From Collinsella sp. (GTDB lineage Bacteria > Actinomycetota > Coriobacteriia > Coriobacteriales > Coriobacteriaceae): a stretch of 64,000 nucleotides of DNA. This document shows, one piece after another, positions 5,658 through 27,202 of this stretch. The stretch lies in contig DBFEIO010000026.1 of assembly GCA_048330275.1 (NCBI GenBank), positions 14,662-78,661 on the forward strand. The letters run 5' to 3'. Position 1 is the stretch's first letter, and each line of letters opens with the position of its first letter. Below the pieces are notes generated by a model. It did no database searches, had not been told where the DNA came from, and saw only the letters and a program-made list of their open reading frames with translations. A program made the position numbers and the translations under genes.

Positions 5658-7171
5658 TGGAGAAGCGAGGCAACACGGGCTACGCCGAGGCGTGGCTGCG
5701 CCGCATGGGATACCAGCCGGACACCCGCATGCAGGGCATGGTGGGCGTCTGGTTCGGCTGGTTCGCGGCGAACAACGGCTGGTACCACTACAGCGAGCGG
5801 CGCGGCTTCCGCGTGTACAAGCGCGAGCGCGCCAGCCTGCACCCGGCGACGCTCGTGGCCGACGAGTGGGCCAGTCTGCTCATGAACGAGAGCACGATCA
5901 TCTCCAGCACGAGCGACGAGCGCCGCGCCTGGATGGCGCGCTACTTCGCCAACCCCACGGCGACGGGCGGCGTCGGCGACGAGGGGCACGAGGACGGCCA
6001 GGCCGCGCCGCAGCCGACAGAGGACGGCGACGCGCCCACATCGTTCGCCATGGACAACGCCGACTTCATAGCCCGCGCGTTCGCCATGGGCACGGGCGCG
6101 TGGGTCATCGAGCCGCGAGGCGTAACCGACAGCGCCTACACGCCCGACGCCGAGCTGCGCATCGTGCGCTACGACGCCACGCAGATAGTCCCGCTCACGT
6201 GGAGCGCCGACGACTGCACGCAGTGCGCGTTCGTGGGCCGCGTGGAGGTCGCCGGGCGCGACTACGACCAGTGCCAGGCCCACGTGCTCAAGGGCGGCAC
6301 CTACCACATCCTCACGCAGCTGTTCGACACCCGCACGCACAAGCAGGTGACGGTCGAGGGCATCAGCGCCGACATGGACACGCGCTGCACCCGCCCGCTT
6401 TTCGCGCTGGTGCGCCCCGCCGTGTCGAACCGCTTCTACGACTACTGTGCGATGGGCGCGAGCGTGTACTGCAACGCCGTGGGGGCCATGAAGGTGGTCG
6501 ACGAGGCCGCCACCTCCCTGCTCGACCACATTCGCGTGGGCCGCCCGCGCACGTTCGTGGACAAGACCCTCATAGAGTCCAAGACCGACAAGGGGCCGGA
6601 CGGCAGCCTCACGAAGACCTACTACGCCTTCGGCGAGGCCGACGACACCATCTTCAGCATGAACCCCGGCGACGAGGGGTCGGCCAAGATTCAGACCGTT
6701 CAGAGCGACCTCAAGGCCGACGAGAACGCCAGCGCCATCAACACGGGCCTGCGCCTGCTGTCGGTAGCGTGCGGCTTCGGCAACGGCTACTTCTCCTGGG
6801 AGTCGCACACGGGCCTGAAGACCGCCAAGGAGGTGGCGGCCGACAACTCGCAGCTGATGCGATCCATCCACCGGCACGAGAACGCCCTGCGCAAGTCCAT
6901 CGTGCGCCTCGTGAACGGCATGGCCGACGCGTGCCGCAGCATCAAGGGCGAGGCCGTGCCCTACGGCGACGTCACCGTGGACTTCGACGACTCCATCATC
7001 AGCGACACGCAGAGCGCGCGCGAGATGGCCATGAGCGAGGTCGGCGCGGGCATCATGGCCCCGTGGGAGTACCGCCGCCGCTTCTACGGCGAGACCAGCA
7101 ACGAGGCCAAGGCCAACGTGCCCGAGCAGCAGGGCGGCGCGTTCGACATGCTGGGCGACGGGCTCGCCTGA
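5657..7171 (+). CDS. Portal protein
   Basis: 504 aa, directly after TerL with an ATGA overlap. Position and size are typical of a portal; the SPP1 Gp6-like assignment is from recollection. Confidence 0.8.
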   Translation: MEKRGNTGYAEAWLRRMGYQPDTRMQGMVGVWFGWFAANNGWYHYSERRGFRVYKRERASLHPATLVADEWASLLMNESTIISSTSDERRAWMARYFANPTATGGVGDEGHEDGQAAPQPTEDGDAPTSFAMDNADFIARAFAMGTGAWVIEPRGVTDSAYTPDAELRIVRYDATQIVPLTWSADDCTQCAFVGRVEVAGRDYDQCQAHVLKGGTYHILTQLFDTRTHKQVTVEGISADMDTRCTRPLFALVRPAVSNRFYDYCAMGASVYCNAVGAMKVVDEAATSLLDHIRVGRPRTFVDKTLIESKTDKGPDGSLTKTYYAFGEADDTIFSMNPGDEGSAKIQTVQSDLKADENASAINTGLRLLSVACGFGNGYFSWESHTGLKTAKEVAADNSQLMRSIHRHENALRKSIVRLVNGMADACRSIKGEAVPYGDVTVDFDDSIISDTQSAREMAMSEVGAGIMAPWEYRRRFYGETSNEAKANVPEQQGGAFDMLGDGLA

Positions 7172-16967: not shown

Positions 16968-17677
16968 TATACAACGGCTTCGACTTCGCGCCGTGGTTCG
17001 ACACCCGGCTCGTGACCCGCTCGCTGCTGCCCGAGTACGAAATCGCCACGCGCGACGTGCCCGGGCAGCCCGGCTCGCGCTTCATGCGCGCAGAGCTGAA
17101 ACCCCTGACGATAGACGTGGCGGCGGCCTGGAGGGCGCGCCCCGCCGACGACATGGCGGCCCTTCGCCGCCTCATGGCCTCGCGCCTGCTGTGCCTCAAG
17201 GAGGCCGAGCTGTGGCTGGACGACGAGAGGCACTTGGGCCTGCGCTACATGGCCGTGCTGACCTCGCCGGGCGCGCTCGACACGCTGTGGCACACCGGCG
17301 AGGCCACGCTGACGTTCACGGCATACGACCCCGTGGCCTACGGGGCCGAGGGGCGCGCAACCGTGTCGGGCACCTCGGGCGTGCAGGTGGGCGGGACGTT
17401 CCGCACCTACCCCACCGTGACCGTCAGGCCCGGCGGCAGCACGTCGGCGCTGCGGCTGACGAACATGGACACGGGCGAGTTCGTGCAGATCGACAAGGCG
17501 GTGACGGCATCGAGCGCGGTGGTCATCGACATGGCCGCCCCGCAGGCCACGGTGGACGGCAGCCCCGCGCCCGTGACCTTCGAGAGTGACTTCTTCCCGC
17601 TGGAGCCGGGGGCCAACAGCCTCAAGCTGTCCAGCGGCACCGCGACGGTACAGTGGACGGAAAGGTACGTGGGCTGA
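16964..17677 (+). CDS. Distal tail protein (Dit)
   Basis: ATGA overlap after the tape measure gene. 237 aa. Confidence 0.7.
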   Translation: MIYNGFDFAPWFDTRLVTRSLLPEYEIATRDVPGQPGSRFMRAELKPLTIDVAAAWRARPADDMAALRRLMASRLLCLKEAELWLDDERHLGLRYMAVLTSPGALDTLWHTGEATLTFTAYDPVAYGAEGRATVSGTSGVQVGGTFRTYPTVTVRPGGSTSALRLTNMDTGEFVQIDKAVTASSAVVIDMAAPQATVDGSPAPVTFESDFFPLEPGANSLKLSSGTATVQWTERYVG

Positions 17678-20229
17678 TGATTCTGTGGGCATGCGACCGC
17701 TGGGAGGCGTACAAGGGACCCATCAAGACGCTGTTCGAGTGCGAGGACACGCGCGAGGTCAACGGCGAGAACGCCCTGAGCATCACAACGCTGGCGCGCC
17801 TGGACAAGGGCGACCGCCTGGTGTGGCGCGACCTCAAGGGCCGCTGGCACGAGAACATCGTGGACGGCGTGGAGGAGGAGCGCGCAAGCGCGGGCATCCT
17901 CTACACGTACTACTGCCCGACCTCGGCGCAAATCGAGCTCCTGGGCGACTACCTGGAGGACAAGCGCCCCTACGACGTGAGCGCCTACGCCGCGCTGGCC
18001 TCGGCGCTGTCCTCCTCGCGCTGGCAGGTCGGAACCGTGGCCGACCTCGGGCAGGCCGGCACGAACTTCTACCACACCAACGCATGGGCGGCCATCCACG
18101 ACGTGGCAGACACTTGGGGCGGCGAGCTGTCGTTCGAAATCCAGGTGAGCGGCACCAAGGTGACCGCACGCCGCGTGTGCATGGCCAAGCAGGTCGGCGA
18201 GGACAACGGCAAGCGTTTCACCTACGCCAAGGACCTCGTGAGCGTCAAGCGCAGCGTGGACGAGGGCAACGTGTGTACCGCCCTGTACGGCTACGGCAAG
18301 TCCCTGCAGACCGCCGACGAGGACGGCAACCTGACGGGCGGCTACGATCGCAAGCTGACCTTCGGCGACGTGAACGGCGGGCAGAACTGGGTGGGGTCGG
18401 CCGACGCGCTGGCGCGCTGGGGACGGCCCGACGGCAAGGGCGGCAAGGCGCACGTGTTCGGCGACGTGGAGTTCTCCGACTGCGAGGACGCCGCCGAGCT
18501 GAAGAAGCTCACCGAGGCGCAGCTGGCGCAGTCGTGCGTGCCCACCGTGTCCTACACCGTGGACGCCACGGCGCTTGCGCGCGCCGGCGAGGGCTTCGAG
18601 GGCGCGGACGAGGGCGACCTGGTGACCGTGGTGGACAAGGTGTACGACCCGCCGCTGCGCGTGCGCACCCGCATCACCAAGGTGGTGGAGGACCAGCTGC
18701 GCCCCGGCGAGGTCACCTACACGTTCGGCAACTACCAGACCGTGGCCGAGCTGATGGCCGCCCAGAAGTCCAGCGCAAAGAGAACGGCTTCGAGCATCCG
18801 CGCCACCGTGGCCGACGCGGTAAACGCGTCCAACAAGGCATCGACCGGCAAATGGGGCGAGAGCCTGGCGGCCTCCGAGAAGCGCCAGGAGGCGTTCGCC
18901 AGGGAGCAGGGCGGCGCGGCCAAGGACTACACCGACGAGGTGAAGGACGCGCTTGACAAGGCCCTCAAGGAGTACGCCGACAACGGGGACACCACGCTGG
19001 AGGAGGCGCTGAAGAAGTACTCCGACGACGGCAACCTGTCCCTTGAGGAAGTGCTCAAGCTCTACACCGACACGTCGATAGAGCAGAGCGAGAGCGTCCT
19101 CAAGCAGATAGACGAGGCCAACAAGGAGTACCTGGAAGGCGTCACGGACAAGCTCGACGTACGGCTGACGAGCGCCGAGGGCGAGGTGGAGGGGCTGCAG
19201 AAGCAGCTCGACCAGCTGCCGACCGATATCCGCAAGAAGATCGTGGAAATGCTCAACAGCGAGATAAACACCACGGGCGGCTGGGTGTACGAGGAGCCCG
19301 GCCAAGGCATCCTGGTGTACGACAAAAAGCCCGAGAGCGCCACCAAGTGCGTCAAGATAGGCGGCGGAATCATCGGCGTGGCCAACTCCAAGTACTCCAG
19401 CGGCGCGTGGAAGTGGCGCACGGCCATAACCGGCGACGGCGTGACCGCCGACGAGCTGACCACGGGCCGCATCAAAGGCGGGAACTCGTACTGGGACCTC
19501 GACAGCGGGGCCTTCTACCTGCGCGACGGCTCCATCTTCATGACCGACAGCAACGGCAACAGGGTCTATATCAACGCCACCAACGGCTTCCAGATATACG
19601 ACAAGAACGGCTCCATCATCGCGGGCACCGTGCTGGTGGGCAGCACCTCCATGTTCCGCTGCAACATGGTCGGCACGTCGTCAACCAACTACATCACCAC
19701 CGGCACGACGACGAACAACCACCCGGGAGCGTCGTTCGTGAACGGCTCGACCGAGTACTGCACCATCGAGGCCGTCCACGCGAAGGACAGCCCCACGGCG
19801 AGCTCGACCGACGGCGTGGGCATATCCACCTGCGGCTACGGCTTCCTGGCAGTCAACCGCTACTACCGCCAGACGTGGCTGACGACCCCCTACTACGCGG
19901 GCTACATGAGCCATCCCGACGAGCAGCTGTACATGAGGAGCGGCAACAGCAACGCGGGCGGCTCGGCGTACGTGAAGCTGCAGGAGAACTCCAACAACTA
20001 CGTGTACCTGGATAGCAGCCGCGCAGACATTGGGTCGTCGGGCACCGCCAGGATACTCGCCCCGAAGTTCGCCATAGGAACCAGTCCGAGCAGCGGCGGC
20101 ACCTACGGGTACACGGGCTCCACGCAGTTCATCGGGTGCATCACCAACAACGGCAACAACTGGACGTGGGGCACCATCAACGTGGTGAACGGAATCATCA
20201 CCGGCATGAGCAGCATCACGGGAAACTAG
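17677..20229 (+). CDS. Tail-associated protein (Tal; prophage-tail N-terminal domain)
   Basis: 850 aa after Dit. The N-terminal region resembles the prophage tail-endopeptidase family, with a central coiled coil. The family assignment is from recollection. Confidence 0.75.
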   Translation: MILWACDRWEAYKGPIKTLFECEDTREVNGENALSITTLARLDKGDRLVWRDLKGRWHENIVDGVEEERASAGILYTYYCPTSAQIELLGDYLEDKRPYDVSAYAALASALSSSRWQVGTVADLGQAGTNFYHTNAWAAIHDVADTWGGELSFEIQVSGTKVTARRVCMAKQVGEDNGKRFTYAKDLVSVKRSVDEGNVCTALYGYGKSLQTADEDGNLTGGYDRKLTFGDVNGGQNWVGSADALARWGRPDGKGGKAHVFGDVEFSDCEDAAELKKLTEAQLAQSCVPTVSYTVDATALARAGEGFEGADEGDLVTVVDKVYDPPLRVRTRITKVVEDQLRPGEVTYTFGNYQTVAELMAAQKSSAKRTASSIRATVADAVNASNKASTGKWGESLAASEKRQEAFAREQGGAAKDYTDEVKDALDKALKEYADNGDTTLEEALKKYSDDGNLSLEEVLKLYTDTSIEQSESVLKQIDEANKEYLEGVTDKLDVRLTSAEGEVEGLQKQLDQLPTDIRKKIVEMLNSEINTTGGWVYEEPGQGILVYDKKPESATKCVKIGGGIIGVANSKYSSGAWKWRTAITGDGVTADELTTGRIKGGNSYWDLDSGAFYLRDGSIFMTDSNGNRVYINATNGFQIYDKNGSIIAGTVLVGSTSMFRCNMVGTSSTNYITTGTTTNNHPGASFVNGSTEYCTIEAVHAKDSPTASSTDGVGISTCGYGFLAVNRYYRQTWLTTPYYAGYMSHPDEQLYMRSGNSNAGGSAYVKLQENSNNYVYLDSSRADIGSSGTARILAPKFAIGTSPSSGGTYGYTGSTQFIGCITNNGNNWTWGTINVVNGIITGMSSITGN

Positions 20230-20574: not shown

Positions 20575-21477
20575 ATGGCAACGCACGAGCTTACGCTCAA
20601 CCTCAAGAAGACCAACATAGCGCCGCCCGTCATCACCGTGCACCAGGGCGACAGCGCCGAGGTCCTGAAGGCCGCCATCTACGACGGCGACAAGAAGGCG
20701 GCCCTGACGGGCTGCAAGGTGCACCTCATGGCTGCGAAACCCGACCACACCTACGTGGAGCAGCAGTTCACTGGCATCAGCGACAACGTGGCCACCGTGA
20801 CGGTCGACCCCGCCGTCTTCGGCGTGGCCGGGCTGCTCAAGGTGTGCTACGTGCGTGTGCGAAACGCGGCGGGGCTGGACGCCACCACCGAGAACGTCCT
20901 GGTGAACGTGCTGCCCTCGGCGAGCGCGTCGGGCGAGATATCCGGCCCGTACGTCGATGCGGTGGAGGCGATCATCGCGAACCTCGAAGGGCAGCTAGCC
21001 GACGTGAGCGCGCTGAACGCGCAGATGCAGAAGGCCGAGGCCTCCCGCGCGAGCGCGGAAAACCAGCGCGCCACGAACGAGAAGGCACGCCAGACCGCCG
21101 AAACCAAGCGCGCAGAGGCCGAGAAGAAGCGAGCCACGGCGGAAAGCGACCGCGTGACCGAGGCGTCGCAGCTGAAGACGGCCTCGCAAGCCGCCACGGC
21201 TGCGGCAAACGGCGCGGCCTCGAACGCCGACGCGGCGGCAAACATCGCCCTGCAGATAGCCAACAGCGTGGCGCAGGGCAGCGCAGGCAGCTCGGACATG
21301 GCCAAGCAGAAGCAGCAGATAGCCGACCTGTACGGCAAGCTGGCCGACGCCACGAACGCGTTCATCTACGACGACGGCACCGTGTACTGCCCCGCCTCCA
21401 AGGCCAGCGCATCTGGCAGCACCATCACGTTCGGGAGCACCTGCACGGCGTCCGGCACAACCCTCAACCTCAAGTAG
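20575..21477 (+). CDS. BppU-like baseplate/fibre protein (N-terminal Ig-like domain plus Ala-rich coiled coil)
   Basis: The N-terminus (LTLNLKKTNIAPPVITVHQGDSAEVLKAAIYDGDK) resembles BppU_N, followed by an AEASRASAENQRATNEKARQTAETKRAEAEKKRATAE stalk. Confidence 0.6.
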   Translation: MATHELTLNLKKTNIAPPVITVHQGDSAEVLKAAIYDGDKKAALTGCKVHLMAAKPDHTYVEQQFTGISDNVATVTVDPAVFGVAGLLKVCYVRVRNAAGLDATTENVLVNVLPSASASGEISGPYVDAVEAIIANLEGQLADVSALNAQMQKAEASRASAENQRATNEKARQTAETKRAEAEKKRATAESDRVTEASQLKTASQAATAAANGAASNADAAANIALQIANSVAQGSAGSSDMAKQKQQIADLYGKLADATNAFIYDDGTVYCPASKASASGSTITFGSTCTASGTTLNLK

Positions 21478-21489
21478 AAAGGCAACGAA

Positions 21490-22398
21490 ATGGCACAAGC
21501 GAAAACCCTGTCGGTGGGCGGCATCGGCTACGAGGTCATCGACGATACCGCACGCAGCAACGCGCAGACGGCGCTCAACAACGCCGAGTACAACCGCCAG
21601 GGCCAAATCGGCAAGTACGGCGGGCAGAGCATCGCCACCATCCTGGCGGGAGAGATCGGCAGCGGCAGCGTGTACGACGCGCTGCACAAGCGAGCCGCCA
21701 ACGGCAACTTCGCGGGCCTGCGCGTGGGAGACTACATCGACGTGCCGCTGGTAAGCGCGTCGGGCGTGGCGGCCCAGCAGTCCGTGCGCTTCCTCCTGGC
21801 GCACTTCGACCCGTACTACTGCTGCGGCGACAGCTCCAAAGGCCACCACATCGCCTTCGTGGCCTCCGCGCCCATCGCCGTGGCCAAGACCGTGACCGGC
21901 GTTGCCAACGACAGCTTCCTGATGTGGAACACCACCAACACGAACCAGGGCACCGCCGACCGGAAATGCCCCTACCCCAACAGCAACCTCAAGGCGTGGG
22001 AGACGGCCTTCGAGGCGTGCCTGCCCGAGGGGCTGACCAAGTACCTGCTTACCCAGCGCGCGCTGCTTGAGGAGCGGTACAGCGCCAGCGGCGCGCTCAA
22101 CGACTCCAACTCGTGGAGCTGGCAGGATATCGGCAAGGTGTTCTCGCTGTCGGAGATGGAGGTGTACGGCTGCCCCGTGTGGGGGACGAAGGGCTACAGC
22201 GTGGGCTTCGACTGCCAGTTTGACCTGTTCCGAGACACGGCGCACCGAGTCAACGGAAATCGGTACGATTGGTGGTTGCGTTCCGTCATGGGTGGCTCCT
22301 CGTCCGACGTGTGCTACGTCGGCGGCAACGGCAATGCCCACTACTACTCGGCGACGAACGTCTGGGTTCGCCCCCGCCCCGGCTTCCTCGTCGGCTAG
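21490..22398 (+). CDS. DGR target protein: receptor-binding tail protein with a C-terminal C-type-lectin-like variable region
   Basis: The C-terminus (NRYDWWLRSVMGGSSSDVCYVGGNGNAHYYSATNVWVRPRPGFLVG) contains the VR. The WWLRS...VRP pattern is typical of DGR targets. Confidence 0.85.
   Translation: MAQAKTLSVGGIGYEVIDDTARSNAQTALNNAEYNRQGQIGKYGGQSIATILAGEIGSGSVYDALHKRAANGNFAGLRVGDYIDVPLVSASGVAAQQSVRFLLAHFDPYYCCGDSSKGHHIAFVASAPIAVAKTVTGVANDSFLMWNTTNTNQGTADRKCPYPNSNLKAWETAFEACLPEGLTKYLLTQRALLEERYSASGALNDSNSWSWQDIGKVFSLSEMEVYGCPVWGTKGYSVGFDCQFDLFRDTAHRVNGNRYDWWLRSVMGGSSSDVCYVGGNGNAHYYSATNVWVRPRPGFLVG
22259..22387 (+). repeat. DGR variable repeat (VR)
   Basis: 129-bp match to 22997-23125 with 9 mismatches, every one opposite an adenine in the TR copy. 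Confidence 0.9.
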
Positions 22399-22406
22399 CC
22401 AGCCGA
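22391..22406 (+). promoter_or_regulatory. Short hairpin (6-bp stem, 4-nt loop) 3' of VR; candidate DGR target-recognition structure
   Basis: tcggct-agcc-agccga. It overlaps the stop codon and lies just after a 14-nt G/C-only stretch (22369-22382). Confidence 0.4.
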
Positions 22407-22502
22407 GTGCTCTATACTCTGCTTTTAGGCGACCGCCTTGCGCGGTCGCCTCCTGCCCGCGAAGCGGGCCGTTTTTTTCGCCAGTTTCCCCAGGAGGTGC
22501 AC

Positions 22503-22973
22503 GTGAGCGGCGTCTACCAGCGCAACCGCGAGGTGTCCGAGTACAAGTTCTTCACACAGGCCATCGCCATCCGCGTGGAGGTTAATAAACTGATGGCGTC
22601 CTCCTCAGTAGTGCCCAAGGCCTACAGGCTGCTGAACGCGGTGCCGACCGTGGAGACGGCGCGCAGCATCGTGTACAACGTCAACCGCGCCGACTGCTTC
22701 TACCCTAACAGCTCGTTCAACGCGCTGGAGAGGAAACGCTACCTGACGCTGGCCATAGCGGACTGCGAGCAGCTTATGCTGGACATGCAGTGCCTCATGG
22801 ATATCGGCCTGCCCGTGAACGCCAACCGCTTCGAGGAGCTGGCGGCCATGGTCGAGGAGGAGATCAGGCTGCTGAAGGGGGCGCGCAAGAACGTGCGCGT
22901 GACGGGCAAGAAGTCCACCGAGGAACGCATAGCCGAGGCCGAGGCCGAGCTAGAGCGCCTGCGTTCGCTATAA
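22503..22973 (+). CDS. avd: Accessory variability determinant (Avd)-like protein
   Basis: GTG after AGGAGG. Helical, 156 aa, located between VR and TR exactly as in the mtd-avd-TR-brt layout. Confidence 0.65.
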   Translation: MSGVYQRNREVSEYKFFTQAIAIRVEVNKLMASSSVVPKAYRLLNAVPTVETARSIVYNVNRADCFYPNSSFNALERKRYLTLAIADCEQLMLDMQCLMDIGLPVNANRFEELAAMVEEEIRLLKGARKNVRVTGKKSTEERIAEAEAELERLRSL

Positions 22974-22996
22974 TGGACGGCGGTCGCGCCTTGTTT

Positions 22997-23125
22997 ATCG
23001 GTACAATTGGTGGTTGCGTTCCGTCATGGGTGGCTCCTCGTCCAACGTGTGCTACGTCAACAACAACGGCAATGCCAACTACAACTCGGCGACGAACGTC
23101 TGGGTTCGCCCCCGCCCCGGATTCC
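22997..23125 (+). repeat. DGR template repeat (TR), non-coding
   Basis: An invariant copy rich in AAC triplets (tcc AAC, gtc AAC AAC AAC, gcc AAC tac AAC). It lies 204 bp upstream of the RT start. Confidence 0.9.
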
Positions 23126-23328
23126 CTTATTGCCAGACCGAGTAGGCCCCAGGGCCGAAAGCAGAGCGCGAAGAGGAAGGAAGGCGCGACCATCGGGCAT
23201 GCGCCCGTAAATACGCACCCCGCGAGGGTGGCCGGACGCTGCTTGCATGGCGCGGCGCTCCGTGGCTTCGCCGCGTTTCATGGCCATACCTCAAGCGGCT
23301 GTCAGAGCCACATTGCAAGCCGTGCGGG

Positions 23329-24519
23329 GTGCTCTCTATGAACTCAGAGCAAAGAAGGGCCGCACGCCGCAAGCGCCGCGAGGAGAAGCGGGCCAAGGCA
23401 AAGGCCGAGCGTCTCAAGGCGTGCACCCTTGAGACGGTGGCCGACCTCAACAGCCTGTGCAAGGCTTCAAAGCAGGCCGCGCGGGGCGTCATGTGGAAGT
23501 CGTCCACGCAGCGGTACATGAAGGACTACCTACGCAACGCCGTCCTGTCCCGCCGCGACCTTTTGGAGGGCCGCGACATATGCCGGGGCTTCATACGGTT
23601 CGACCTATGGGAGCGCGGCAAGCTGCGCCACATCAGCGCCGTGCACTTCCCCGAGCGCGTGGTGCAGAAGTCACTGTCGCAGAACGCGCTCGTGCCCGCG
23701 ATCGTGCCCACCCTCATAGCCGCCAACTCCGCGAACATAAAGGGGCGCGGCACCGACTACGCCCTGAGGCTGCTCAAGCGCCACCTGGCCGACAACTGGA
23801 GGAAGCACGGCGACGATGGCTACATACTGCTCGGCGACTTTTCCGACTACTTCGCCCGCATAGCGCACGGCCCCGTCAAGGAACAGGTGGCTGCCGCGCT
23901 GCTCGATCCGCGAGTAATCGCCCTTGAGCACCGCCTGATAGACGCACAGGGCGAGGCTGGCCTGGGCCTGGGCAGCGAGCCGAACCAGATATGCGCGGTG
24001 GCGCACCCAAACCGCATCGACCACTACGTGGCCGAAATGCTGCGCCCCGAGGCCTACGGGCGCTACATGGACGACTTCTACCTGATCCACGAGTCCAAGG
24101 AGTACCTGCAGGTATGCCTGCTGCTCATAGAACGCGAGTGCGCGAAGCTCGGCATAGAGCTGAACCCGCGCAAGACCCGCGTGGTGAGGCTGACGCGCGG
24201 CTTCACGTGGCTGAAGAAGCGCATCTTCTACACGGAGACGGGCCGCATAGTCGTGAAGCCGTGCCGCGACTCCATCACGCGCGAGCGCCGCAAGCTGAAG
24301 AAGATGGCCCGCATGGTAGCCGATGGCATCATGACCCCCGAGCAGGTGGAGCAGAGCTACCAGAGCTGGCGCGGAGGCATGAAGCGGCTGGACGCGCACC
24401 GCAGCGTGCGGGCCATGGACGCGCTGTACCGCAGCCTGTTCGGAAATCCCGCGGGGGGGGGTTGCTCAATGCAATCCAAACCTGGAGGCGACACGGATGG
24501 GAACATGCCCCTACCCTAG
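23329..24519 (+). CDS. DGR reverse transcriptase
   Basis: RT motifs are present, including GRYMDDFYLIH (YxDD) and LGSEPNQ at the position of the DGR-type [ILV]GxxxSQ motif. Confidence 0.9.
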   Translation: MLSMNSEQRRAARRKRREEKRAKAKAERLKACTLETVADLNSLCKASKQAARGVMWKSSTQRYMKDYLRNAVLSRRDLLEGRDICRGFIRFDLWERGKLRHISAVHFPERVVQKSLSQNALVPAIVPTLIAANSANIKGRGTDYALRLLKRHLADNWRKHGDDGYILLGDFSDYFARIAHGPVKEQVAAALLDPRVIALEHRLIDAQGEAGLGLGSEPNQICAVAHPNRIDHYVAEMLRPEAYGRYMDDFYLIHESKEYLQVCLLLIERECAKLGIELNPRKTRVVRLTRGFTWLKKRIFYTETGRIVVKPCRDSITRERRKLKKMARMVADGIMTPEQVEQSYQSWRGGMKRLDAHRSVRAMDALYRSLFGNPAGGGCSMQSKPGGDTDGNMPLP

Positions 24520-24537
24520 CAACGGAAGGAGCGACCC

Positions 24538-24783
24538 ATGACGGAACAGGATATCGCCGGGGAGATCAACGGCTACAAACAGCAGCTTGAGCAGAGCGAC
24601 TACAAGGTCATGAAGGCGGTGGAGCGCATCTTCTCCGCATCGTCCATCACCGACCTGCTCTCGGCCATCGCCGCAGCTGCCAAGGAGGTGGCCGAGATCA
24701 TCTCGCAGCGCCAGACGTGGCGCGACCGCATCAACGAGCTGGAGGCCATGGAGCCCGACCAGCCGGAAGCGCCGCAGGAGTAG
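24538..24783 (+). CDS. Hypothetical phage protein
   Basis: GGAAGGAG RBS. 81 aa. A terminator follows. Confidence 0.5.
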   Translation: MTEQDIAGEINGYKQQLEQSDYKVMKAVERIFSASSITDLLSAIAAAAKEVAEIISQRQTWRDRINELEAMEPDQPEAPQE

Positions 24784-24785
24784 CG

Positions 24786-24825
24786 AGCGCCCCTTCGGGG
24801 GCGCTTTTCTTTTGCCCGGCGACAC
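24786..24825 (+). terminator. Rho-independent terminator followed by a conserved TGCCCGGCGACAC box
   Basis: agcgcccc-ttcg-ggggcgct then tttctttt; the box lies at 24813-24825. Confidence 0.6.
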
Positions 24826-24869
24826 CTCGCGGACAATCGCGGCAGCGATTCGAGGAGGTGAGAAAACGA

Positions 24870-25283
24870 ATGACCGACGTGCTGGAAATCTTCGCGCCGT
24901 ACGGCCCCGGGTCGCTTTTCGGCGCGCTGCTCGTCCTAGTGGTCCTGTACTTCGGCAAGCAGTTCCTCGAAGAGTTCAAGGCCCAGAACGAGCGCAAGGC
25001 GAACATCGACCTCAAGCGCGAAGAGCGAAAGCAGGACGAGGTGAACGAGCGGGCGCAGCGCGACCGCGAGCGCAGCCAGATGGAGGGCCGCATCGCCGCG
25101 CAGATGGAGCGCAGCAACGCGCTGATGGAGGCCATGAAGGCGCTCATGGAGTCCGTCGTTACCTCCAACGAGGTGCTGCACGCCGACCTGGCGAACAGCC
25201 AGGCGCGCAGCCAGGGCATGGCGGCGAAGGTCGACCACATCGCCGACCGCGTCGACCTGCTCTACAAGGAATCGGCTCGATAG
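24870..25283 (+). CDS. Membrane-anchored coiled-coil protein (lysis-module accessory?)
   Basis: GAGGAGG RBS. One N-terminal transmembrane segment (SLFGALLVLVVLYF), then a charged helix. Confidence 0.5.
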   Translation: MTDVLEIFAPYGPGSLFGALLVLVVLYFGKQFLEEFKAQNERKANIDLKREERKQDEVNERAQRDRERSQMEGRIAAQMERSNALMEAMKALMESVVTSNEVLHADLANSQARSQGMAAKVDHIADRVDLLYKESAR

Positions 25284-25296
25284 AAAGGAATCCGAA

Positions 25297-25602
25297 ATGA
25301 CAGAAATGCAAGCAATCGCAGCCATCGTGCTGTCTTTCGCCGTGCCGTTCGCGGTGCAGCTGATCAAGACCGAGGCCATGACCGGCAAGGCCGCCCGCGC
25401 CCTGGCGCTGGGCTGCTCGCTCCTGGCGGGCGTCGTGACCGGCTTCGTGGGCGGCGTGCCCACAGACCCGGGCGCATGGGTAACGTGCGCCTTCGCCGTG
25501 GTAGGCGGCGTGCAGGCGGCCTACACGCTGTTCAAGTCGGTAGGCATCACATCCAAGTGGCTCGACGCCCTGCTGGGCGTGACCGTAGGCGGGAAGGAGT
25601 AG
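25297..25602 (+). CDS. Holin-like membrane protein
   Basis: 101 aa with 3 predicted hydrophobic segments. Lies immediately upstream of the endolysin. Confidence 0.6.
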   Translation: MTEMQAIAAIVLSFAVPFAVQLIKTEAMTGKAARALALGCSLLAGVVTGFVGGVPTDPGAWVTCAFAVVGGVQAAYTLFKSVGITSKWLDALLGVTVGGKE

Positions 25603-25605
25603 GCA

Positions 25606-26418
25606 ATGGCTAAACTGTTCGTCATCTGCGGCCACGGCGCTGGCGACCCCGGCTGCTGCGCAGGCGGCTACACCGAGGCCGAGCGCGTTCGCGCCCTGGG
25701 CCAGCGAATCAAGGAACTGGGCGGTTCCGAGGTCGAGCTGGGCGATACGTCCCGCAACTGGTACGCCGACGGCGGGCTTAACCGCCTGAGCACCGACGCG
25801 CCAGTGGTGGAGCTGCACATGGACGCCAGCGGCATCGCCACGGCCCACGGCGCGCACGTCATCATCAAGGAGGGCTTTGAGCCTGACGAGTACGACAATG
25901 CGCTGGCCGACAAGCTGGCGGCGTTCATGCCCGGGCGCTCCGAGAAGCTGGTGCGCCGTTCCGACCTCGCGAACCCGAACCGAGCCGCCGCGCGCGGCAT
26001 CAACTACCGCCTGTGCGAGAACGGCTTCATCGACAACGACGGCGACCGCGAGAAGTTCAACGGCAACCTGGACGAGCTGGCGCGCATCTACCTGGAATGC
26101 TTCGGCATCACTGCTGGAAGCGCCCCCGCAGCCGTCCCGCAGCCGCAGCCTGCGCAGCAGGAAACGATCGAGAACTTCGGCGGCACCTACCGCTGCACTG
26201 TGGACTACCTGCGCGTGCGCGACGCCCCCGGCCTGGGCGGCACCGAGGTGGCGCACTATTCCAGCGGCGAGACCGTGACGCTGGATAACTGGTACAAGAT
26301 CGCCGACGGCTACGTTTGGGGCCGATACACGGGCTACAGCGGCGCAACGCGCTACATCGCCGTGGGCAAGGCCACGGGCAAGCCAGAGGCCGACGACTAT
26401 CTGGTGAAGGTGGGATAG
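25606..26418 (+). CDS. Endolysin: N-acetylmuramoyl-L-alanine amidase with a C-terminal SH3-like domain
   Basis: The pattern ICGHGAGDPGC...ELHMDAS...ENGFIDN is Amidase_3-like. The C-terminus (YRCTVDYLRVRDAPG...YVWGRYTGYSG) is SH3-like. Confidence 0.85.
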   Translation: MAKLFVICGHGAGDPGCCAGGYTEAERVRALGQRIKELGGSEVELGDTSRNWYADGGLNRLSTDAPVVELHMDASGIATAHGAHVIIKEGFEPDEYDNALADKLAAFMPGRSEKLVRRSDLANPNRAAARGINYRLCENGFIDNDGDREKFNGNLDELARIYLECFGITAGSAPAAVPQPQPAQQETIENFGGTYRCTVDYLRVRDAPGLGGTEVAHYSSGETVTLDNWYKIADGYVWGRYTGYSGATRYIAVGKATGKPEADDYLVKVG

Positions 26419-26838: not shown

Positions 26839-27202
26839 TGGTGGAGGCGCGGAGAATCGAACTCCGGTCCACGAAAGCCCCCTGATTGGCATCTCCAAGC
26901 TCAGTCGCTGGTTTAGTCTCGGACGCTTTGCGCGCAGCGACACGCTCGCAGCATCCCAACCGGTTCGATCTTAGCCTGCGCCATACCGATTACGTGCGCA
27001 GGAGCATTCCCCTAACATGACGTCGCACCGGTGTCGGGGAAATCACCGGGTTGACGCGCCGCTATAAATTAAGCAGCGAGAGCCATAGGCTCAAAAGAAG
27101 AGTTGTTGTCAATTCAATTTGACGGCACCCCTGTTTAACGAGGCGAGGAGACCTCGGCTTGCTTCCTCTCTCAGAGCTATCGTGTCGAAACCAGTCGCCC
27201 CC
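26839..27202 (-). ncRNA. ssrA: tmRNA
   Basis: On the minus strand, the 5' end reads GGGGGCGACTGGTTTCGACA and the 3' end reads GGAGTTCGATTCTCCGCGCCTCCACCA. The tag ORF reads GAC AAC AAC TCT TCT TTT GAG CCT ATG GCT CTC GCT GCT TAA (DNNSSFEPMALAA). Confidence 0.9.

Follow-up and report, generated by a model that had tools for sequence, protein, structure and literature searches.

Within a 64,000-nucleotide stretch of a Collinsella sp. genome (assembly GCA_048330275.1, contig DBFEIO010000026.1; the whole stretch is hereafter called the window), a 129-nucleotide (nt) segment at the 3' end of a phage-like gene recurs downstream with differences only at adenines of the downstream copy. The locus raises the question of whether the two copies are the variable repeat (VR) and the template repeat (TR) of a diversity-generating retroelement (DGR), in the company of a reverse transcriptase (RT) and an accessory variability determinant (Avd), and whether such an element still works. 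Our analysis indicates, with very high confidence, that the repeat pair is the VR and the TR of a complete DGR that a Collinsella prophage carries within its distal tail module. The element is intact in the window and almost certainly functional; we infer its activity here from its intactness and from the behavior of its relatives.

A direct comparison of the two repeats over 129 aligned nt, without gaps and at an offset of 738, gave nine mismatches, at the TR positions 23005, 23044, 23059, 23060, 23062, 23063, 23077, 23083, and 23121, each with A on the TR side and G, C, or T on the VR side. These are the same nine mismatches that the initial annotation had listed, and the number of adenines in the TR, which it had put at about 25, is exactly 25. 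The probability that nine of nine mismatches fall on adenines by chance is 1.0e-7 (hypergeometric; 25 A in 129 nt). The VR in the window is in frame, extends over the 129 nt with no indels, and agrees with the TR at all 104 non-A positions, and on either side of the repeat the identity drops immediately to the background level. An independent repeat search of the window returned the VR/TR pair as the longest repeat family. Neither a third repeat copy nor a second VR for this TR was found on either strand of the window, where the best off-target segment agreed at 52 of the 104 non-A positions, which is background.

The VR covers codons 257-299 of the 302 codons of the gene that contains it, referred to as the target gene. 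In this open reading frame (ORF), the differences between TR and VR amount to six amino-acid changes, N260D, N273D, N278G, N279G, N284H, and N286Y, and one silent change at G298 (GGA to GGC). The earlier statement that the changes lie mostly in AAC (Asn) codons was upheld, whereas the accompanying list of new residues (D, G, G, H, Y) was one short of the six found (D, D, G, G, H, Y). Every one of the 24 mutable adenines in the TR occupies codon position 1 or 2 of the VR frame, the TR codons in this frame include seven AAC and two AAT, and a stop codon is unreachable by any A-to-N change in any TR codon.

The ninth mismatch, at column 125 of the alignment (VR 22383, TR 23121), is of a different kind. 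In all of the 74 elements compared (the window and 73 related loci, introduced below), this column is C in the VR (74/74) and A in the TR (74/74), and because it is fixed in every element, the mismatch is not a product of mutagenesis. Of the mutagenesis signature that the initial annotation had read from nine adenine mismatches, eight thus stand and the ninth does not. When column 125 is excluded, eight of eight differences fall on the 24 mutable adenines in 124 columns (P = 6.7e-7).

Judged from the arrangement of the sequence, column 125 marks the boundary between the shared part of the initiation of mutagenic homing (IMH) element and its VR-specific part (IMH*). Past this column, the VR and TR flanks diverge except for a shared GCCAG(A)CCGAGT, and the GCCAGCCGAGT at the end of the VR-specific segment is also present in GCCAGACCGAGT (23132-23143), downstream of the TR. 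In the DGR of BPP-1, the IMH consists of (GC)14, which the TR also has, and after it a VR-specific segment that determines which way transfer goes (PMC3240598), and cDNA synthesis starts at a G inside the GC-rich part of the TR (PMC6182149). The 14-nt G/C-only element of the window and the fixed difference that follows it correspond to the BPP-1 IMH arrangement. If cDNA synthesis began upstream of 23121, this would account for the adenine there never showing variation.

The relatives of the target gene number at least 231 among species-representative genomes. Of these, 80 loci, nearly all from Collinsella, were taken, and the VR and the TR of each locus were extracted in register. Five loci were left out: two in which the repeats are merged into one, one that has an indel, one in which TR and VR differ in allele class, and one whose TR is corrupted. 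The final counts refer to 73 related loci and the window, that is, 74 elements. Each related locus comes from a single assembly, in many cases a metagenome-assembled genome (MAG), and the VRs of these loci may be consensus sequences.

Over columns 1-124 of the 74 elements, 734 of the 752 differences between TR and VR (97.6%) are at TR adenines. All of the 24 mutable A columns vary in the VR, with a mean entropy of 1.38 bits and a minimum of 0.70 bits, whereas the TR is nearly invariant at the A columns (0.09 bits). The entropies of the non-A columns, 0.13 bits in the VR and 0.12 bits in the TR, are on a par with each other and with that of the 150 nt upstream (0.16 bits). The 74 elements carry 74 distinct VRs versus 31 distinct TRs, and each of the eight differences of the window in columns 1-124 is at a column that is variable among the relatives. 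The bases that replace A in the VRs of the clean loci are G (54%), C (28%), and T (18%), proportions that reflect polymerase bias and selection together. Heterogeneity among related prophages is confined to the columns opposite TR adenines, as the initial annotation had anticipated; neither variation spread over non-A columns nor equal variability of TR and VR, which it had named as contrary outcomes, was seen in the 74 elements.

The same figures bear on the proposal that the pair is an ordinary paralogous repeat, in which a duplicated gene fragment has drifted or its Asn codons have been under diversifying selection, and in which gene conversion acts now and then but reverse transcription plays no part. 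The intergenic TR can be read as a pseudogenized copy of the 3' end of the gene, and the concordance at non-A positions could in principle result from gene conversion. However, drift would not be expected to concentrate 734 of 752 differences at a single template base or to keep the TR invariant exactly where the VR varies most, and the asymmetry between A in the TR and any base in the VR is accompanied by an adjacent RT resembling that of BPP-1, an Avd, and an RT-2 RNA. Together with the A-only divergence between almost identical prophages described next, these results leave the paralogous repeat with practically no probability.

Fourteen non-A columns are polymorphic in the family, and the VR base at these columns is the base of its own TR in 1029 of 1036 cells, indicating that sequence is copied between TR and VR. 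Two pairs of closely related loci indicate the direction and the recency of this copying. In the first pair, L035 and L045, the flanks differ at 2 of 2090 nt and the TRs are identical, yet 13 A columns, and none of the non-A columns, distinguish the two VRs. In the second pair, L001 and L014, 6 flanking nt differ, as do 10 positions of the TR and 10 non-A positions of the VR. Since near-identical prophages carry different VRs, the VR turns over fast in this prophage family. These results show that copying at the population level is one-way, from TR to VR, and that the lineage has been active recently. The complete cassette and the population data support the initial proposal that the element has been active and has undergone adenine-specific mutagenic retrohoming.

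Some of the related loci have unusual configurations. One complete genome, NZ_AP031421.1 (Collinsella sp. i05-0019-G5), contains two copies of the DGR prophage family, at ~0.50 Mb and ~1.53 Mb (L012 and L030), each with its own TR/VR pair and 13 mismatches, located at A in 12/13 and 13/13. In L010 (~6770-6919) and L058 (~6770-6898), which are 2 of the 80 loci, the VR and the TR are merged into a single repeat, avd is deleted, and the target gene runs into RT-2 and the RT; in terms of the window, 22259-22408 is joined to 22997 onward. These mergers look like natural recombination deletions between the repeats. A hybrid TR 3' flank, in which a VR-type IMH is joined to RT-2 at the shared CCGAGT microhomology, occurs once in the table of flanks. 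In L077 (7171-7181), a deletion begins within the first third of avd and ends in the C-terminal portion of the RT, so that the equivalent of window 22670 is joined to that of 24194; the TR, the RT-2 RNA, and most of the RT are lost and the VR is retained, leaving a decayed element with a frozen VR. For L026, the TR (5880-6008) has only 18 A, departs from the consensus mainly at A columns, and shows seven non-A mismatches to the VR; this template looks A-mutagenized, by self-homing or by VR-to-TR conversion. For L048 (VR 6770, TR 7507), the two repeats belong to different non-A allele classes, TTGCGTCGGG versus CATGGGTGG at columns 29-35, with 11 non-A mismatches, so that either the TR was recently replaced with no homing since, or the contig is a chimeric MAG.

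A further possibility is that a DGR once active in the lineage is now silent in this genome, the eight differences at A sites then merely preserving homing events of the past. Relatives do decay, as seen in the deletion of L077 and in the merged repeats of L010 and L058 that lack avd; in L026 the template, too, has changes at A columns, 2 of 78 RT ORFs are truncated, and nothing resembling a promoter was found in 22000-25000. Conversely, the window has a full-length RT with YMDD, a full-length avd ORF, and a full-length match to RT-2, its TR equals the family consensus at all 25 A, and its IMH and hairpin are common alleles. The different VRs of near-identical prophages also point to fast turnover in the family. 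Silencing in this genome is thus considered unlikely.

The components of the cassette between and beyond the repeats agree with a functional DGR. For the RT, a sequence search of the PDB gave BPP-1 bRT (8ub7_A, E 4.7e-11) as the best solved relative, with a group II intron maturase next at 1.6e-5. In the alignment of the RT with 8ub7_A, the equivalent of bRT R74 is conserved and YMDD is present.

The structured RNA RT-2 starts 3 nt after the TR, fills the gap that separates the TR from the RT, and overlaps the start of the RT gene. From this position, RT-2 may be the counterpart of the BPP-1 spacer (Sp) RNA. In the 2017 paper on RT-associated motifs (Weinberg et al.), only RT-10 was tied to a DGR, that of BPP-1, and the other RT motifs were speculated to serve other DGRs (PMC5737381); the position of RT-2 in the sequence of the window lends support to this speculation. 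In the minimum free energy (MFE) fold, the pyrimidine-rich 3' end of the TR pairs with the RT-2 purine tract GAAGAGGAAGGAAGG, at ~23174-23188. Separately, where the RT gene stops and the following ORF starts, a 21-nt segment (24527-24547), AGGAGCGACCCATGACGGAAC, shows 95% complementarity to an invariant stretch of both repeats (VR 22280-22300, TR 23018-23038), which could represent pairing with the TR RNA or chance in GC-rich DNA.

For Avd, the AlphaFold2 (AF2) model built with 43 homologs (predicted local distance difference test, pLDDT, of 86) is a four-helix bundle with a fifth, C-terminal helix. Its top Foldseek matches in the PDB are 2rld and 2gsc, both annotated as belonging to the S23 ribosomal protein family, which includes Avd, followed by bAvd (8ub7_B-E and 4dwl), with target-normalized TM-scores (TMt) of 0.75-0.86. 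Because the modeled fold matches Bordetella Avd and the S23 family, the 156-residue protein is called a divergent Avd. Among its homologs, 4 of 43 match PF05635 weakly, and one carries the legacy name of PF05635.

Downstream of the VR, the candidate hairpin at 22427-22451 is kept in the relatives, with one compensatory pair (G:C to T:A).

Several observations weigh against the interpretation as a complete and working DGR. The sequence of the Avd protein gave no match in Pfam, NCBIfam, PHROGs, or the phmmer and profile searches of the PDB, so that Avd is recognizable by fold only. The DGR RT signature is [I/V/L]GxxxSQ, as opposed to QGxxxSP in group II and retroviral RTs (PMC7826257), and the motif of the window, LGSEPNQ (residues 214-220, given as window 23541-23561), has N in place of S, although the hydrophobic first residue, G, and the final Q are kept. 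Since YMDD and LGxxxNQ are kept in 76 of 78 relatives, LGSEPNQ is a lineage variant and not damage. Hairpins of phage DGRs have a stem of 7-10 bp and a 4-nt GRNA loop, and lie 4-34 bp from the VR (PMC3240598), whereas the loop here has 5 nt (CTTGC) and the hairpin starts 40 nt past the end of the ungapped repeat, outside that range. By all the features that could be examined the element is a DGR, and the textbook description is matched only in part in two of them, the S-to-N change in the RT motif and the hairpin loop. In addition, the MFE fold of the TR 3' end with RT-2 is no better than that of shuffled sequence (z = -0.2), and the pairing between TR and spacer is for this reason only a lead. 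A sigma-70 promoter scan of 22000-25000 gave no site for an avd-TR-RT transcript. When the whole model of the target protein was compared by Foldseek with the PDB, no Mtd, TvpA, or other C-type lectin structure was returned. Finally, the evidence consists of assemblies only.

The products of about one tenth of the listed target homologs (P0126, P0150, P0189, and about ten others) are 488-494 residues long. In these homologs, a frameshift in the VR leads to read-through of the intergenic stretch into avd, in the frame of the window ORF 22269-22973. The frameshifts may be genuine indels that arose from error-prone cDNA, or the heterogeneous VR may have been misassembled.

The use of assemblies also allows that the VR of the window is a consensus or a chimera of a mixed population, in which case the haplotype with eight differences, and the protein with D, D, G, G, H, and Y, may not be one molecule. 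Hypervariable VRs are hard to assemble, the frameshifted homologs are what assembly errors (or real indels) would give, and the different allele classes of the VR and the TR in L048 are what a chimeric MAG would show. The VR of the window, on the other hand, is in frame and free of indels over its 129 nt and is identical to the TR at the 104 non-A positions. We consider a composite VR improbable, somewhat more so than the silencing discussed above, and the nature of the element would be unchanged by it.

What the DGR diversifies is probably a receptor-binding protein. The AF2 model of the target protein (pLDDT 89.8) has strands at residues 273-277 and 283-287 that flank the most variable codons, 278-282. 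Foldseek matches of the target in BFVD are phage DUF6273, receptor-binding, and tail-fiber proteins, with E values down to 2e-16, and the sole fold match of the model in the PDB is the DUF6273 N-terminal domain of an IgA peptidase. A C-type lectin fold has been assigned to DUF6273 by others (PMC10743442); because this fold was not recovered by Foldseek against the PDB, the C-type lectin claim for the target draws on the literature. The DUF6273 family of the target comprises 941 representatives at 50% identity, and the module is usually C-terminal, in proteins of 280-1837 residues.

A mechanism for the diversification can be proposed on the basis of the work on BPP-1 (PMC3240598, PMC6182149, PMC7826257, bioRxiv 10.1101/2023.10.23.563531). 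A transcript spanning avd, the TR, and the RT-2 RNA would be bound by the RT and the Avd-like helical-bundle protein. The structured RT-2 RNA would position the 3' end of the TR, and cDNA synthesis would start in or near the G/C-only stretch. The RT would be faithful on C, G, and U and would misincorporate opposite template adenines. The cDNA would then replace the VR, and the IMH (the GC element together with the VR-specific sequence from 22383) and the hairpin would direct the transfer and make it one-way. The expected outcome is random recoding of up to 15 codons (residues 257-290), mainly Asn codons AAC and AAT, in the C-terminal DUF6273 domain, which would give ~1e14 possible protein variants.

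The closest known system is the prototype, the BPP-1 DGR (mtd-avd-TR-brt). The gene order is alike (target, avd, TR, structured RNA, RT), and the VR is at the 3' end of a gene for a tail receptor-binding protein, which is probable for the target here. Both systems show A-only differences between TR and VR, mostly in AAC codons, a 14-nt G/C-only element common to TR and VR that is followed by a VR-specific IMH, and a GC-rich inverted repeat downstream of the VR. The RT has 8ub7_A as its closest solved relative, with the R74 equivalent kept, and the modeled Avd fold matches 8ub7_B-E and 4dwl. In contrast, the RT has 396 residues and LGSEPNQ here, compared to 328 residues and IGSLTSQ in BPP-1; the 156-residue Avd has a fifth helix and is without detectable sequence similarity; the RNA between TR and RT is Rfam RT-2 instead of RT-10 (PMC5737381); the target is a 302-residue DUF6273 protein instead of the 381-residue Mtd; the hairpin loop is CTTGC (5 nt) instead of GAAA; and the host is a Gram-positive actinobacterium. 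Within the Rfam RT-2 family, the member in the window is full-length (145 bits), lies upstream of the RT start and overlaps it, and here occupies the spacer position of a DGR.

By type of target, the closest systems are the DUF6273-target DGRs of the Faecalibacterium phages Lelie, CP11, Roos, and Pioen (PMC11792537) and target2 of nd4 and nd12 (PMC10743442). Like these DGRs of gut Firmicutes, the present element has its VR at the C-terminus of the domain and a small single-domain target (~230-300 residues) in the tail module. In the gut-phage targets, a beta-hairpin is predicted to carry the variable residues (PMC11792537, PMC10743442), and our model likewise has strands, at 273-277 and 283-287, on either side of codons 278-282. 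The present element differs from them in the host group (Collinsella, Coriobacteriia) and in having a single target, compared to two in nd4 and in nd12. A nucleotide search of deposited phage genomes gave no similarity except for 99 nt of the RT gene of Roseburia phage Shimadzu. A literature search for a described Collinsella DGR found none, the large DGR catalogues being outside that search; the element is very probably listed in those catalogues. It is a clear, canonical example of a well-known kind of system and not surprising to a specialist.

The DGR lies at the end of a Collinsella prophage that carries the distal tail and lysis genes (Table 1). The 3' end of a tmRNA gene, whose tag peptide is ARQPGDFPDTGATSC, directly borders the prophage, and this gene is the probable attachment site. 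The G+C content is 67% on the prophage side versus 61% on the chromosomal side. An attL/attR repeat of the tmRNA 3' end of at least 14 nt was found nowhere else in the window, so the left end of the prophage is probably upstream of window position 1.

Table 1. Features of the DGR and its neighborhood, in positions of the window
Feature	Position	Strand	Basis and remarks
Tal-like tail tip prophage protein; start of distal tail module	17653..20229	+	Pfam Prophage_tail PF06605, E 8.5e-37; PHROG 12312 and 19445 (tail tip protein Tal)
BppU-like baseplate upper protein, directly upstream of target gene	20575..21477	+	Pfam BppU_N PF10651, E 1.7e-10
DGR target gene, variable protein of 302 residues	21490..22398	+	DUF6273 PF19789 at residues 215-295; VR at 3' end
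VR	22259..22387	+	Repeat comparison; columns truly diversified, 22259-22358 (columns 1-100)
IMH GC element, 14 nt, G/C only, CGCCCCCGCCCCGG	22369..22382	+	Identical in TR at 23107-23120; invariant in related loci
IMH-specific segment unlike TR (IMH*)	22383..22408	+	Opens with the fixed C, ends in GCCAGCCGAGT
GC-rich hairpin/cruciform candidate	22427..22451	+	10-bp stem, 5-nt loop CTTGC; DNA fold z = -3.9 for the region
Intrinsic terminator of target gene	22455..22478	+	Hairpin 22455-22469, GCCCGC-GAA-GCGGGC (GAA loop), then T7
avd, divergent accessory variability determinant, 156 residues	22503..22973	+	GTG start after AGGAGG; fold match
TR	22997..23125	+	Repeat comparison; 25 A, of which 24 mutable
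RT-2 RNA (RF03077), structured RNA between TR and RT	23128..23352	+	Full-length match, 145.1 bits (gathering threshold 40), E 4e-36
DGR reverse transcriptase, 396 residues	23329..24519	+	RVT_1; phrog_1423, E 3.5e-64; YMDD and LGSEPNQ
Holin and amidase endolysin (lysis module), downstream of RT	25297-26418		Pfam and PHROG matches
tmRNA gene adjoining lysis module/prophage	26839..27202	-	Rfam RF00023, 157.6 bits; ARAGORN

A more tentative idea is that the Collinsella element represents a distinct and very active Coriobacteriia sub-lineage of phage DGRs that departs from the textbook description in three features: an LGxxxNQ RT, a 156-residue, five-helix Avd that is invisible to profiles, and RT-2 as its spacer and priming RNA. 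We regard this idea as possible but doubtful. If it holds, pairing of GAAGAGGAAGGAAGG with the 3' end of the TR could place the point where cDNA begins upstream of 23121, RT-2 would become the second of the RT-associated RNA motifs to be given a role in DGRs, and the at least 231 natural variants would form a comparative data set for the rules of DGR priming RNAs outside Bordetella.

Overall, the A-only mismatch signature between TR and VR reliably picks out a working DGR, and the analysis assigns RT-2, an Rfam motif published as an orphan, to the spacer position of a DGR. The family also contains natural experiments, namely swapped TR alleles copied into the VR, VR/TR mergers that remove avd, and a corrupted TR. 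The understanding of DGRs is unchanged by these results; their value is in a clean and well-populated example and in a possible Gram-positive model. Collinsella is a common genus of the human gut, and a widespread family of DGR-bearing prophages, with at least 231 relatives among species-representative genomes, is documented in it here. Because every VR examined differs, the phage keeps re-tuning what is probably its receptor-binding protein.

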